Positions 15,179 through 20,063 of a DNA stretch of 64,000 nucleotides are shown here, in pieces (within the stretch, counting starts at the first letter, position 1; every line of letters begins with the position of its first letter). The notes below the pieces were generated by a model that saw only the letters and a list, made by a program, of their open reading frames with translations, was not told where the DNA came from and ran no database searches. Source of the DNA: an uncultured Bacillales bacterium (GTDB lineage: Bacteria > Bacillota_I > Bacilli_A > RF39 > UBA660); the NCBI GenBank assembly GCA_947564265.1, contig CANOBK010000006.1, forward strand, positions 40,648 to 104,647. The letters run 5' to 3'. The translations under genes and the position numbers were made by a program.

Positions 15179-15730
15179 TTACATATAATTATCAGCTTTT
15201 ACTTCCATGAAACTTTGTGGATGCTTACATACTGGGCATACATCAAGGGCATCTTTTCCAATATAAACATGACCACAGTTTCTACAAATCCACATTTTTT
15301 CTCCATCTTTATGGAATACTCTATCATCTTTAAGATTCTGTAATAGTCTTAAATATCTTTCTTCATGTTCTTTTTCAATCTTTCCCACTGCTTCAAATAA
15401 GTAAGCAAGCTCATTAAATCCCTCTTTTTTCGCTGTTTCAGCAAACTGCTTATACATATCTGTCCATTCATAGTTCTCACCCTCAGCAGCAGCTTTTAAG
15501 TTTTCTTCTGTTGTAGGAATCTTTCCACCATTTAGATATTTAAACCATAATTTTGCATGCTCTTTTTCGTTATTTGCTGTTTCTTCAAAAATAGCAGCAA
15601 CTTGCTCATATCCATCTTTCTTTGCTTGAGATGCGAAATAAGTATATTTATTTCTAGCTTGGCTTTCTCCTGCAAACGCAGTCATTAAGTTTTGTTCTGT
15701 TTCAGAACCTTTTAATTTTTCATAATCCAT
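15179..15730 (-). CDS. rbr: Rubrerythrin
   Basis: [34 protein letters not shown] and a C-terminal rubredoxin-like WICRNCG..CPVCKHP. Confidence 0.96.
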
Positions 15731-15857: not shown

Positions 15858-16427
15858 TTATACGTCTTTCCTCTGATAAAACCTTTTTACATAAGGTCTT
15901 CGATCAATATAATGATTTAAATCAGGACCTGTTCCTAACATCGTAATAGGATAATTTAATTCACTTTCTAACCAATTTAGATATTCTCTTAGATATCGAT
16001 TTAATTCTATTCCTTCGTCACCAATGCCTGAATAGAATCCACTTTCTTGAAAAAAATCCCAATCAAGCTGCTCAAAAAAATTCAAATACAACTCTACTGG
16101 TTCATTATCTTCTATACTTTCTTTTAATAGATTGATATCAATAGGAAAAATTCTCCTCAGTTTCTCTGTCACGCTCGTTAATTCGTTTAGTGTAGGAGCA
16201 GACGGCAAATATTCTAAAATCATATCCTCATCAACCGCCTGGGCTGGATATCCTAGATAGGCACCAACATTAATTTGATCCCAATCAAGTTCTATAGAAT
16301 CTCCGTAGTCTCCACTATAAATATAAGATCCATCATAAATTTCATTGCTAATTCGAATTGGGTAAGGGCGAAATACCATGATTGTCTTTTTTAATCTACT
16401 AGGGGAGATTTTACTATCAGATAACAT
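15858..16427 (-). CDS. C-terminal half of a PurZ-like adenylosuccinate-synthetase-family protein
   Basis: FRPYPIRI, SGDY..ELDWDQI, ELTSVTEKLRRIF, EPVELYLNFFEQL, ITMLGTGPD. In frame with 16428..17030 and separated from it only by TAA. Confidence 0.8.
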   Translation of the reverse strand: MLSDSKISPSRLKKTIMVFRPYPIRISNEIYDGSYIYSGDYGDSIELDWDQINVGAYLGYPAQAVDEDMILEYLPSAPTLNELTSVTEKLRRIFPIDINLLKESIEDNEPVELYLNFFEQLDWDFFQESGFYSGIGDEGIELNRYLREYLNWLESELNYPITMLGTGPDLNHYIDRRPYVKRFYQRKDV

Positions 16428-17030
16428 TTAAGCTACCGAAACAATCCTGGAAGTTACATTCGGATGAGTATTGACATTATTTAAAGACAAATTGCATCCT
16501 TGAGAACCCTCAACTAAAACTTTTTCAGAACTGTTTAATACATCATGAAATTTTCGGTGATAGTTGGGATCTGCCTTGATATTTTTATATTCTTTGAAAA
16601 ATTTTAAATTTGGGTCTCTCATAATCTTTTCAGATAGACAGGGAGCACATCCTTTAAAGGTAGTACCTGTTTTAATTCTTCTCTTTTCTTCTTCGATATG
16701 TCTTGACTCAATGAGTGGAACTAGCGGGTGAACAATAATTTCTCTTCCTTCTAAAATATCTTTATTTTCCTCATACTCCTGTTCCAAAACATTCATATCA
16801 ATGATAGAACCAGGTCCAATAAAAAGCTTCGTTCTTGGATTTACTGCCGAAACCGGAATATTACGAAATAATCTTCTTCTTCCATTTTGTTCAAATGTAT
16901 GACCCGCATTTGGCATGCAATTGGAAACGGCTGCATCTACATCTTCATGAATCGCAAATTGTCCAATTACTTTTCCCTTTCCACAACTCCCTGCTTGTCC
17001 ATCAATAATCGCATAAACATTTTCCTTCAA
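16428..17030 (-). CDS. N-terminal half of a PurZ-like adenylosuccinate-synthetase-family protein
   Basis: IDGQAGSCGKGK, MPNAGHT, IGPGSII, GTTFKG, EKIMRD, VLVEGSQGCNLSLN, PNVTSR. TTG start with AGGAGG SD. Confidence 0.85.
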   Translation of the reverse strand: MKENVYAIIDGQAGSCGKGKVIGQFAIHEDVDAAVSNCMPNAGHTFEQNGRRRLFRNIPVSAVNPRTKLFIGPGSIIDMNVLEQEYEENKDILEGREIIVHPLVPLIESRHIEEEKRRIKTGTTFKGCAPCLSEKIMRDPNLKFFKEYKNIKADPNYHRKFHDVLNSSEKVLVEGSQGCNLSLNNVNTHPNVTSRIVSVA

Positions 17031-17049
17031 CCAAAATCCCTCCTATTTC

Positions 17050-17946
17050 TTATTTTAAATCATTAATTACTCCATGAATCAAATTTAAATCAGATGGGAT
17101 AATCCATTTGATATTTCCTTTTTTAAATAAGGTTAGCGGAATAATTGCCCCTGCTCTCGCTCCATCCATCCATTTTGGATTTTGTGGCATTAGTTTGTAT
17201 AATTCTTCTAATGTAACCTCATAAAAAACACGTTCTGTTCCAGAAATATAATCTTCTAAAGATACCATATACTTATGAACACCATCATCAAACAAAGTAT
17301 TTGGAACTAGATTAAAATCTGTTAATAATTCAAAGCGTTCCTCTCCTCCCGTAAATATAGCACAATCATAATCTTGATCGAGTACTAAATCTGAAAGTTT
17401 TTCTTCGACAAAAGAATCCATTTCTTCTACTGTATTTCCACTTTTTGGGAGATTGACCTTCTCAAAGTTATTTAATAAATCGGCAACTCCTACCTTTAAA
17501 TTTTTTGTATCTACTATTTTAGAACCTACAAAAGTAACAAGTTCTGTTGTCTTTCCACCCATATTAATAATTAATACTTTTTTGCCGTTATAATCTTTTT
17601 GCATCGCTTTTCCTAAGTAATAGTTTTCAATTCCATGACTAATAATATTAAAATATAAATCAAATTTATCATTAAATAATTTTACTAGTTCTATTTTTCT
17701 TTCATAGTTTAATTCACGGAAAATTCCAGTTACATAAATATGTGTATTCTCATACAAAAAATGATATTTTTCTTTTAATTCAGAAAAGTAATCACAAAGT
17801 TCTTTTAAATTCTCTTTGCTAATTCCCTTCTCTTTATCAAATCCATTTTTAAAGTAAATAGAATGCTCCTCCAATAATTTTAAATCGTTTTCATATTCAT
17901 AAACTTTAATTGTCGATGAACCTAAATCAATATAATATTCTTTCAT
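17050..17946 (-). CDS. Ppx/GppA-like ASKHA-fold phosphatase (catalytic domain only)
   Basis: YIDLGSSTIK (phosphate-1), VTGIFR, ISHGIENYY (conserved Glu), INMGGKTTE (phosphate-2, D to N). 298 aa, no C-terminal HD domain. 19 bp upstream of the PurZ-like gene. Confidence 0.75.
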   Translation of the reverse strand: MKEYYIDLGSSTIKVYEYENDLKLLEEHSIYFKNGFDKEKGISKENLKELCDYFSELKEKYHFLYENTHIYVTGIFRELNYERKIELVKLFNDKFDLYFNIISHGIENYYLGKAMQKDYNGKKVLIINMGGKTTELVTFVGSKIVDTKNLKVGVADLLNNFEKVNLPKSGNTVEEMDSFVEEKLSDLVLDQDYDCAIFTGGEERFELLTDFNLVPNTLFDDGVHKYMVSLEDYISGTERVFYEVTLEELYKLMPQNPKWMDGARAGAIIPLTLFKKGNIKWIIPSDLNLIHGVINDLK

Positions 17947-17950
17947 AACT

Positions 17951-17973
17951 GCCTCCTTAATTTGATTGTAGCA
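17951..17973 (-). promoter_or_regulatory. Extended -10 promoter and SD of the Ppx-like/PurZ-like operon
   Basis: Minus strand TGcTACAAT (17973-17965) followed by AAGGAGG (17958-17952). Confidence 0.55.
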
Positions 17974-18008
17974 TAAAAAAGAAAAAGATAGTATATAAAT
18001 TAAGAAAT

Positions 18009-18971
18009 CTATTTTCTATCTTCTTTGATCATAAATGTACTATTGTTTAGAAATTCATAATGAGAATCTGTTTTCAATTGCCTAACTAATCGAAATAATG
18101 CTTCATCTTTTCCTTTGCATTCTAACATGACATCAACTTCTCTTTGATAAGGTGCAATCACTTGAAGAAACTTTTCAAATCCTTGGTAAGAAAGATATGT
18201 ACTATGGCTTCTTTTTTCTTTTCTACTCTTTGGACTAGAAAAATGAATTTTAGGAGGAAGATTTTCGTTCTTCCATGTCTTAAAAATTCGAGGAAGTAGT
18301 TTTTCTATTTTTTCGCCTCCATGATTACATAAATAATGATGATAGTCTAAGACCATTGGAATCTGTAATTCTTCACATAATTCTAAAACATCTTTCACTG
18401 TATATATTTTGTCATCATTTTCTAGAAGAATCATATTTTTTATTTCTTTTGATAATTGATTAAAGACTGTTCGAAAACGGTTTAAGGCTTCCTCTTTATT
18501 TGGCATAGAGCTTCCAACATGTAAGATTACTTTTCCAGAAACTCCAAGTGCTTCATAAATCTGATAACAGACAAAAAGTTCATTGATTGTTTGTTCTACT
18601 ACAGATGGATTGATACTATTTAACACGCAGAATTGGTTCGGATGAATATCTACTCTAAGATGATTTTTCTTAATAATAGAACCGATTCTTTTCCATTTAT
18701 TTTGATAGGGAGTAATAAAATCATAAGAATAGCCTGGATAAGTAGCTAGTGGTATCATATTATGACTCAGCCGATAGAAGAAAATTTCATTTTGAATATT
18801 ATACTTTAGAATTCTTTCTAAAAATTCTAGATTGTGATTGATGATCTCTGAAAGTTTTTCTTTCTGTTTTTCTTTTTCTAATGTTTGTAGTCTTGTCCAA
18901 GTGATTGTGTGATAATGATCCATTTCATCTAAAGTTAGAGAAATTGCTACATAACCAAGTCTTATTTTCAT
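18009..18971 (-). CDS. uvsE: UV DNA damage repair endonuclease
   Basis: IRLGYV, FYRLSHNMIP, IHPNQF, VILHVG, LENDD, LDYHH, IHFSSP, HSTY, MLECKGKDEAL. Confidence 0.93.
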   Translation of the reverse strand: MKIRLGYVAISLTLDEMDHYHTITWTRLQTLEKEKQKEKLSEIINHNLEFLERILKYNIQNEIFFYRLSHNMIPLATYPGYSYDFITPYQNKWKRIGSIIKKNHLRVDIHPNQFCVLNSINPSVVEQTINELFVCYQIYEALGVSGKVILHVGSSMPNKEEALNRFRTVFNQLSKEIKNMILLENDDKIYTVKDVLELCEELQIPMVLDYHHYLCNHGGEKIEKLLPRIFKTWKNENLPPKIHFSSPKSRKEKRSHSTYLSYQGFEKFLQVIAPYQREVDVMLECKGKDEALFRLVRQLKTDSHYEFLNNSTFMIKEDRK

Positions 18972-19073: not shown

Positions 19074-19871
19074 GTGCTCAAGATGGAGAATGAACTTTTA
19101 TATGAAGAATTATTATATTTTGAAAAATTAGTAACCGATTTAGAAATTGAATTATTTGCGAAACCTTATGGCCAAGATTTTTTTCCTATCCTTGAATGGA
19201 ATCTACGGAATATTTTTAAACTTAGAAGAAGTATGAAAGATAAGGAGGAAAACGAATTTTATTTCAATTGGTTAAATGATTTATATAAAAGATTTATATC
19301 AATTCGTGATATAGCTTATGCCAACTGTAATATTCCTCTAGGTTACTACTTAAATGAGCAGGCGTCTATTACCCATTTGGTATATACAAATAATAAGTGT
19401 TCTAATATAAAACTATACTCTGATTCTGGTTTTATATTTCTATGCCAATTTCATCAGGAGAAGACTCCATCTTTAGGAGTTAGAGAAAATTTTGGTCATG
19501 GATACTGTTTTGGTTGTGGGAGCAGTTTTCACGCAGTTCAATATCTCATGGAATTTGAAAATCTAACTTATCAAGAAGCAATACAATTACTTTCAAAAAT
19601 CTATTTAATTGATATTTATGGAAATCCCGTACAAGAAAATGATCCTTTGGTTCTAAAATATAGAAAATCCCTATTAAGTGGTGATTTTAAATCTTTACTA
19701 GAACGAGGTTATTCACGTACTATAAAAAGAAAAGATACATACGAGGTGCAGAATAGTATACAAAAGTTTGAACATGACTTCGCTACCATAGAAAGAATTA
19801 AACGACATGGTCATATTCCATTTGATAATAGAAGAAAAAAATATTTTTTAAGGATGCCAGAATTTAACTAG
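19074..19871 (+). CDS. CHC2 zinc-finger domain protein (primase-type Zn-binding domain, no TOPRIM)
   Basis: FLCQFHQEKTPSL..YCFGCG..AVQYLMEFENLTYQEAIQLL in mid-protein. ATG at 19083 is an alternative start. Confidence 0.75.
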   Translation: MLKMENELLYEELLYFEKLVTDLEIELFAKPYGQDFFPILEWNLRNIFKLRRSMKDKEENEFYFNWLNDLYKRFISIRDIAYANCNIPLGYYLNEQASITHLVYTNNKCSNIKLYSDSGFIFLCQFHQEKTPSLGVRENFGHGYCFGCGSSFHAVQYLMEFENLTYQEAIQLLSKIYLIDIYGNPVQENDPLVLKYRKSLLSGDFKSLLERGYSRTIKRKDTYEVQNSIQKFEHDFATIERIKRHGHIPFDNRRKKYFLRMPEFN

Positions 19872-19989: not shown

Positions 19990-20063
19990 GGGTCTATAGC
20001 CAAGTGGTAAGGCGTGGGACTGCAACTCCCTGATCGTTGGTTCAAATCCGACTAGGCCCTCCA
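19990..20063 (+). tRNA. trnC: tRNA-Cys (GCA)
   Basis: Acceptor stem GGGTCTA/TAGGCCC, D arm gccaagtggtaaggc, anticodon loop CTGCAAC, T arm gttggTTCAAATccgac, U discriminator and encoded CCA; 74 nt. Confidence 0.97.

Follow-up and report, generated by a model that had tools for sequence, protein, structure and literature searches.

The subject of this work is a pair of adjacent genes in a window of 64,000 nucleotides from an uncultured Bacillales bacterium (assembly GCA_947564265.1, contig CANOBK010000006.1, positions 40,648 to 104,647), the first encoding a phosphohydrolase of the Ppx/GppA fold (ASKHA) and the second a homologue of adenylosuccinate synthetase. The synthetase is of the PurZ type and not a canonical PurA, as follows from its position in the tree, the serine in place of Asp13, the retained signature residues of phage S-2L PurZ and the fold; judged by sequence, it represents a cellular branch within the Ser-type PurZ clade. 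The pair moves as a unit, and no adenylosuccinate lyase was found in the 14 carrier genomes searched. Our preferred reading, to which we assign a probability of about 0.5, is that the two genes form an accessory chromosomal operon of uncultured gut Bacilli that makes a succinylated guanine-derived nucleotide.

A PurZ-type synthetase on bacterial chromosomes

The copy in the window is interrupted by a stop codon, and Pfam assigns both parts to the Adenylsucc_synt family. The parts lie in the same frame with no frameshift, and the joined product of 390 aa (P0001/P0242) was used for comparison. A search of 1.84 billion representatives returned 86 proteins at E 1e-30 or better. The N-terminal part holds GQAGSCGKGK, MPNAGHT, and EGSQG, and the C-terminal part holds PIRISN, ELTSVTEKLRR, YLNFFEQL, and LGTGPD, so that the motifs quoted in the original prediction (GQAGSCGKGK, MPNAGHT, ELTSVTEKLRR, YLNFFEQL, LGTGPD) are all present. 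Their proposed collinearity with phiVC8 PurZ is borne out by a HMMER alignment (6tnh/6fko) in which MPNAGHT, EG.QG..LSLN, PIR, EL.W.Q, T.VT...RR, and LNF are matched.

All phage PurZ and PurZ0 references share the serine at the position equivalent to Asp13 (GQAGSCGKGK), and it does not vary within the family. It is found in 154 of 163 aligned sequences (query, representatives, and references); canonical and archaeal PurA references are among the exceptions that carry Asp. Residues of S-2L PurZ, whose roles we take from PMC8342488, are retained at G22, S23, N49–T53 (including the catalytic His H52), G130–T132, R146, Q190, T205, R240, T273, R280, N305–F306, and G335; T273, a PurZ-specific substrate contact (PMC8342488), is kept throughout the family. 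The insertion after the V241 loop, which in PurZ presses on C2' and is connected with the preference for deoxyribose (PMC8342488), has a similar length here (RISNEIYDGSYIYSGDYG), although V241 itself is replaced by Ile. At the position of S-2L Q308, likewise a PurZ-specific substrate contact (PMC8342488), most of the family has Gln, but the query and its closest relatives have Glu, in line with the acidic residue that had been noted at the Asp333 equivalent.

In the maximum-likelihood tree (102 rows, LG+G4, rooted on canonical PurA, with SH-aLRT as the only support measure), the Ser-type sequences form a clade of 95 rows with a support of 98, and the PurA of Pyrococcus horikoshii lies just outside it. 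The joined halves of the synthetase fall inside this clade and outside canonical PurA, as the original prediction required of a PurZ homologue. PurZ0 is an early branch within the clade (96 and 98 for the node excluding it), and the query family is grouped at 97 on the opposite side from the PurZ proteins of phiVC8, S-2L, and Acinetobacter. The split between the two sides has a support of only 87/94, and the PurA-like gene of Bacillus phage vB_BpsS-140 falls on the side of the query family.

The structural data agree with the tree. The AlphaFold model of the synthetase (mean predicted confidence, pLDDT, 93.6) fits P. horikoshii PurA with a template modelling (TM) score of 0.87, phiVC8 DgsS with 0.84–0.85 (root-mean-square deviation 2.7–2.9), and S-2L PurZ with 0.83, whereas TM for canonical PurAs is only 0.61–0.69. 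A helical insertion at about aa 250–282 is the family's own, and a 455-aa form has about 90 residues there. Bacterial PurA models score the synthetase far below their cut-offs (106.7 against 395.55 bits for TIGR00184 and 79.9 against 402 for NF002223), and PHROG 1211, the phage "2-aminooxy adenylosuccinate synthetase", matches it at 1.8e-50. The best phage identity is at most 31% (INPHARED), phage PurZ being 28–31% identical.

Among known systems, phage PurZ/DgsS (phiVC8, 6FM1/6TNH; S-2L, 7ODX) shares with the query the short PurA-type fold (TM 0.83–0.85), Ser for Asp13, T273, the N-F motif, the insertion after the V241 loop, and the aspartate loop T-[ST]-V-T-x-x-x-R-R, and is its sister in the tree. 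In contrast to phage PurZ, the query family resides on bacterial chromosomes and is missing from phage collections, has its own helical insertion at aa 250–282, lacks the DatZ, MazZ, or DpoZ neighbours of phage Z clusters, and is found in hosts without PurB. The PurZ0 of actinophages (Gordonia phage Archimedes, 7VF6) has the Ser-type active site and belongs to the same clade, but it branches earlier, is about 25–27% identical, carries Asp rather than Gln or Glu at the Q308 position, and has no N-F motif. The short archaeal PurA (P. horikoshii 5K7X/2D7U; NF003295) is the best fold match, with a score in NCBIfam nearly equal to that of PurZ, but it keeps Asp13 and the G-T-V-T-G-R-R-R-R loop and stands outside the Ser-type clade.

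Two further forms were seen among the representatives: P0368 is a PurZ-like protein with an N-terminal P-loop kinase domain (AAA_18, weak dNK-like match), and P0280, P0283, and P0300 are PurZ-like proteins split by inteins with LAGLIDADG endonucleases.

The phosphohydrolase partner and the conservation of the pair

The partner is a Ppx/GppA-fold phosphohydrolase, its hydrolase activity being predicted from sequence and model. The Ppx/GppA-like phosphatase assignment made at the outset is upheld by Pfam (Ppx-GppA, PF02541, 33.2 bits against a cut-off of 27), by the profile of the partner family against Aquifex Ppx/GppA (2j4r/1t6c, E 8e-16), and by fold: the AlphaFold model (pLDDT 92.2) has Ppx/GppA proteins as its top 38 matches, followed by NTPDases, and the best of them (1t6c, 7epq, 6pc0, 6pbz) reach TM of about 0.7 with E from 1e-20 to 1e-17. 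Two Glu residues, E107 and E135, never vary and correspond in the alignment to those of Aquifex "PEQEGRY" (catalytic) and "GGGSTE" (metal-binding).

The two-domain ASKHA fold and the catalytic and Mg-binding Glu are thus common to the partner and to Ppx/GppA of Aquifex aeolicus (1T6C), H. pylori (6PC0), and E. coli (GppA, 6PBZ). It differs from them in being only 15–19% identical, in consisting of just the two ASKHA domains without C-terminal domains III/IV, and in having Asn for the Asp of DxGG; TIGR03706 gives 43 bits against a cut-off of 307. No relatives of the partner were found in INPHARED and IMG/VR. A second family of ASKHA proteins of about 300 aa, also Ppx/GppA-like (L107–L117), occurs in 16 of the 121 genomes sampled from the order; it is 23–30% identical to the partner, shares the invariant Glu residues, and is unlinked to the synthetase.

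Relatives of the synthetase are encoded by 118 stretches of GTDB species genomes, and the locus counts below refer to the best 80 of them, almost all from uncultured gut metagenome-assembled genomes labelled "Bacilli", "Tenericutes", or "Mycoplasmatota". An orthologue of the ASKHA gene (70–91% identical, tblastn) is present in 39 of the 80 loci. The two genes share a strand in all 38 clustered pairs; ASKHA is immediately upstream of the synthetase, 7–33 nt away, in 37, and the gap in the remaining pair is 1084 nt. Each flank of the clustered pairs includes at least 30 different gene clusters. It is this combination of conserved order, strand, and gap with varied flanks that indicates movement of the pair as a unit. 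The only recurrent neighbour of the synthetase is the ASKHA gene; a cluster of ABC transporters occurs in 11 loci and all others in five or fewer. The expectation that the two genes would co-occur in other genomes therefore holds in part, in that the tight pair recurs under varied flanks and the partner is not obligatory.

In the order sample (121 genomes, the source genome being G000), the synthetase was found in nine. Of these copies, seven are intact, that of G000 carries the TAA, and that of G019 a TGA and a TAA. The ASKHA gene adjoins the synthetase in four of the nine carriers and is missing beside it in five. Two genomes of the window's own genus lack both genes.

It could be supposed that the two genes are functionally unrelated and that the ASKHA protein is the cell's own GppA or polyphosphatase, merely sharing a transcript with the synthetase. 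The presence of Rel/RSH in the source genome, the ASKHA genes without synthetase in G108 and G043, and the higher conservation of the ASKHA protein (75–91%, against 40–80% for the synthetase) are all consistent with this. We nevertheless consider it improbable, since order, strand, and a gap of about 20 nt are the same in 37 loci though both flanks change, the pairing holds across synthetases only 40% identical, close ASKHA orthologues occur in just six of the 121 genomes, four times next to the synthetase, and polyphosphate is an unlikely substrate where PPK1 and PPK2 are not found, as in the source genome. The presence of Rel and the absence of both kinases likewise make guanine nucleotides more plausible substrates of the partner than polyphosphate.

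The loci without ASKHA have only a weak nucleotide or repair flavour: Pfam counts over their 132 neighbour proteins give Nudix 4, UDG 3, and DHFR 2. At one of them (L037), a MutT-like Nudix gene lies 22 nt upstream of the synthetase in the same orientation, in the usual place of ASKHA, which we liken to phage PurZ and PurZ0 travelling with hydrolases of dGTP to dGMP (PMC8342488; PMC12884076). Two loci with a lone PurZ-like gene may be recorded separately. Upstream of it, L003 (4462–6860) has a 608-aa HD (weakly dGTP-triphosphohydrolase-like) plus CYTH protein and an NT5C-like deoxyribonucleotidase, and in L004 (5475–6919, one metagenome-assembled genome) the immediately preceding genes, on the other strand, are of the VTC (polyphosphate polymerase-type) and DUF4956 kinds. 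At L013 (G043:C6:15515–19309), genes for an MGMT-like methyltransferase and a Tag-like 3-methyladenine glycosylase come after a lone ASKHA orthologue broken by a TGA; a DNA-repair flavour thus recurs, UvdE preceding the pair of the window.

On the viral side, the synthetase family is absent from IMG/VR (2.9 million viral contigs), where we found just three distant relatives with 28–32% identity. P0249, the nearest outgroup that could be placed, comes from a contig of 54 kb whose replication genes (PD-(D/E)XK, helicase, ThyX, homing endonuclease) form a phage-like module. This suggests, as the simplest history, that the family was captured from phages and then spread in bacteria.

The missing lyase and the proposed chemistry

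Phage PurZ relies on the PurB of the host for the conversion of dSMP, the succinylated intermediate, to dZMP (PMC8342488; PMC12884076). In the source genome (1.68 Mb in 25 contigs, 89.6% complete) we found no PurB (TIGR00928), Lyase_1 (PF00206), IMP dehydrogenase/GuaC, or GuaA. PurB and Lyase_1 are also absent from all nine carriers of the order sample and from five further carriers, including the complete circular chromosome OZ006970.1, that is, from 14 of the 14 carriers searched. Detection of PurB in G010 and G081 serves as a positive control for the lyase search in this lineage, and Lyase_1 occurs in 4 of the 121 order genomes, three of which carry canonical PurA. The step from dSMP to dZMP has no known catalyst in the carriers, so the evidence lends no support to the known route running through to 2-aminoadenine, nor to the label of a 2-aminoadenine pathway in the original prediction.

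A full cellular Z pathway would need an unrecognised enzyme outside Lyase_1 that cleaves the intermediate to give dZMP and dZTP or Z ribonucleotides, maybe with 2-aminoadenine in nucleic acid. It would accommodate the PurZ-clade placement and signature residues, a partner of the guanine-nucleotide hydrolase type, as in phage Z clusters, and the strong purifying selection. The 14 carriers without PurB or Lyase_1, the lack of a DatZ-like, DpoZ-like, or other recurrent neighbour, and the fact that natural dZ-DNA is reported from phages only (PMC13128860) make such a pathway doubtful.

The same survey bears on whether the gene is a divergent housekeeping adenylosuccinate synthetase converting IMP to adenylosuccinate for AMP synthesis. 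The catalytic His and the P-loop, IMP-phosphate, and Asp-loop residues are kept, and the PurZ-like gene is the sole PF00709 gene in the source genome and in four of five other carriers checked. We regard this as very unlikely, given the Ser for Asp13, the branching apart from canonical and archaeal PurA, a TIGR00184 score far below the cut-off, and the missing PurB, IMP dehydrogenase/GuaC, and GuaA. Moreover, 103 of the 121 order genomes have no PF00709 gene at all, and G123 has a PurZ-like gene plus a canonical PurA, which means that the two enzymes are not simple substitutes.

Two observations on related genes belong here. Three of the six relatives with canonical PurA (G071, G077, and G094; 520–560 bits) have no PurB or Lyase_1 at a completeness of 93–96%, which is odd in itself. 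A third PF00709 type of about 480 aa (242–262 bits) was found at L104 (G082:C5:16700–18350) and L105 (G109:C7:12650–14300); it keeps GDEGKG, has the aspartate loop YKGNIDKEFER or YTGEIDDDFKK, and forms a long branch between canonical and short PurA.

We infer the substrates, product, and biological role of the pair as follows. The phosphohydrolase would strip the terminal phosphates from a guanine (deoxy)nucleoside polyphosphate (dGTP or GTP, possibly pppGpp) and so supply (d)GMP. The PurZ-like enzyme would phosphorylate O6 of (d)GMP with ATP, GTP being possible for the Glu-bearing subclade, and would then add aspartate to give N6-succino-2-amino-(deoxy)adenylate. Since the carriers have no adenylosuccinate lyase, the likely end point is the succinylated nucleotide itself or a drain on the guanine pool, and not 2-aminoadenine. 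As to the phosphate donor of PurZ0, two papers differ, and it gives no guide to the donor here. A similar arrangement is known from phages, where MazZ, DUF550, or DutZ, phosphohydrolases converting dGTP to dGMP, are encoded beside the synthetase with an inferred supply of monophosphate (PMC8342488; PMC12884076), and where PurZ0 in particular travels with DutZ, a hydrolase of dGTP and dATP to dNMP (PMC12884076). The folds are different: MazG, DUF550, and dUTPase-like in phages and ASKHA Ppx/GppA here.

Several results weigh against this proposal. The synthetase scores 176.8 bits with the NCBIfam PurZ model (NF038379), below its cut-off of 300, and nearly the same, 170.8 bits, with the archaeal short PurA model (NF003295, cut-off 368). 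Compared with S-2L PurZ, Ala replaces the aromatic Y21 in front of Gly-Ser and Ile replaces V241, so base and sugar preference could differ from those of PurZ. In the partner, the Asp of Aquifex DxGG ("VVDQGGG") is Asn128, and with Rel present the substrate could instead be pppGpp. Roughly half of the loci lack the ASKHA gene, and the two order genomes with ASKHA and no synthetase, in one of which the copy is broken, point the same way. No regulator is evident, though a constitutive drain of dGTP would be costly. Finally, the activities of both enzymes are read from sequences and fold models, and the synthetase copy of the source genome is interrupted.

A module against phages or stress overlaps with our proposal in chemistry: the pair would be switched on either to tie up dGTP or GTP in a succinylated dead-end product, which would deplete nucleotides, or to yield a toxic analogue. 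The patchy occurrence (9 of 121 genomes, none in the two genomes of the same genus, broken in G000 and G019), the absence of a lyase that would recycle the product, and the phage-like contig of P0249, consistent with capture from phages, would suit such a role. At the same time, PADLOC gave no match for the synthetase or the partner, the surroundings do not form defence islands (only generic matches to methyltransferase and UvrD domains, with housekeeping or repair genes on the flanks), and no sensor is evident. We hold this role to be rather unlikely, and the anti-phage suggestion made earlier gains nothing from the surroundings of the pair.

The locus in the source genome and the meaning of the pair

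The positions of the pair and its flanks are given in Table 1. Open reading frames and Pfam agree with the layout originally described, an ASKHA gene, a 19-bp gap, and a synthetase between rubrerythrin and a UV endonuclease.

Table 1. Position of the gene pair, its upstream and intergenic stretches, and the flanking genes in the window
Feature	Position	Strand	Basis or remark
UV-damage endonuclease UvdE (flank)	18009..18971	(-)	PF03851, 262 bits
62-bp stretch upstream of the ASKHA gene, with Shine-Dalgarno GGAGG and -10-like TGCTACAAT	17947..18008	(-)	sequence inspection
Ppx/GppA-fold (ASKHA) phosphohydrolase, 298 aa, first of the pair	17946..17050	(-)	Pfam PF02541, fold match
Intergenic gap, 19 bp, with Shine-Dalgarno AGGAGGG for the synthetase	17031..17049	(-)	sequence inspection
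Whole adenylosuccinate-synthetase homologue reading frame including the TAA	17030..15858	(-)	open reading frame
PurZ-like synthetase, N-terminal part, 200 codons, TTG start, ends in premature TAA	16428..17030	(-)	open reading frame; PF00709, 67.7 bits
In-frame TAA, synthetase codon 201	16430..16428	(-)	homologues have CAA (Gln) or AGA (Arg)
PurZ-like synthetase, C-terminal part, 189 codons, from conserved Met202 ATG abutting the TAA	15858..16427	(-)	open reading frame
Rubrerythrin (flank)	15179..15730	(-)	PF02915 and PF21349

In the source genome, a single recent change of the C-to-T type would have produced the TAA at codon 201; the Met encoded by the next codon is conserved among homologues. 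Recoding of TAA was rejected, as the same codon terminates the ASKHA gene and neighbouring genes. The ratio of nonsynonymous to synonymous substitution rates (dN/dS, against three species, with dS near saturation) is about 0.06 for the N half of the synthetase, 0.14–0.25 for the C half, and 0.06–0.10 for the partner. Decay after the stop was also considered and discarded: an apparent excess of changes in a comparison of four sequences disappeared with eight, where the ratio of C-half to N-half divergence and the singleton changes of the query match those of intact homologues, leaving no sign of long-term decay. The lesion either arose very recently, or reflects an error of the assembly, or is tolerated, the enzyme being made in two pieces by termination and reinitiation at TAAATG, and the PurZ-like enzyme of this genome is probably inactive or split. 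A second broken PurZ-like copy in the order sample, at G019:C4:24478–25501 (TGA and TAA, fragments), indicates that the family has been lost repeatedly.

With regard to transcription, the string TGCTACAAT proposed earlier as a promoter is present (reverse complement of 17971..17963). Its hexamer lies very close to the Shine-Dalgarno sequence, ending only some 6 nt ahead of it; the scan for promoters and terminators found nothing above shuffled background and did not call the string, so a promoter at this site is unproven. The scan gave no terminator downstream of uvdE, and the pair may be cotranscribed with uvdE. No riboswitch or other RNA was found upstream of the pair, the sole RNA match being a tRNA at 19990–20060.

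The locus is chromosomal and non-phage, as had been proposed, with ordinary neighbours in the window and no counterpart family in phage collections: the nearby genes encode NrdD, Tex, a nitroreductase, a surface protein, TatD, GNAT, LysM, and SNase proteins, there are no phage or mobility genes within about 10 kb of the pair, and the UvdE flank is also present in the closest species. Farther out, at 19074–19871 beside the tRNA, is a 265-aa protein whose match to DnaG primase is confined to the zinc finger (57.6 bits; cut-off 283.6); it may be a remnant of a mobile element.

The PurZ group described in PMC12884076 consists of phage sequences and four archaeal ones only, and natural dZ-DNA is known only from phages (PMC13128860). 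In the searchable literature we found no description of a PurZ-like gene on a bacterial chromosome or of a PurA-family gene paired with Ppx/GppA. What this analysis adds is the conserved ASKHA partner, the consistent lack of the lyase among the carriers searched, and an outgroup on the phage side. A bolder view is that gut Bacilli run PurZ chemistry from guanine deoxynucleotides to N6-succino-2-amino-deoxyadenylate and from there, by direct use or with the help of a lyase still to be discovered, on to 2-aminoadenine or a succinylated purine in the pool or in DNA, the Ppx/GppA-fold enzyme being a fourth, independently recruited supplier of dGMP; we would call this a long shot.

Taken together, the data reveal a distinct PurZ-clade family carried chromosomally by more than 100 uncultured bacterial species of the gut, under purifying selection, often with a partner enzyme whose fold is not seen in phage Z clusters and in hosts that cannot finish the known pathway. 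Intact orthologous pairs exist in other carriers, for example on DLAC01000037.1 (L014) and the complete chromosome OZ006970.1 (L087). The pair would add one more independent instance in which a nucleotide phosphohydrolase is coupled to a PurZ-type enzyme, and it raises the question of what use a predicted deoxyguanylate–aspartate ligase may be to a cell without the lyase.

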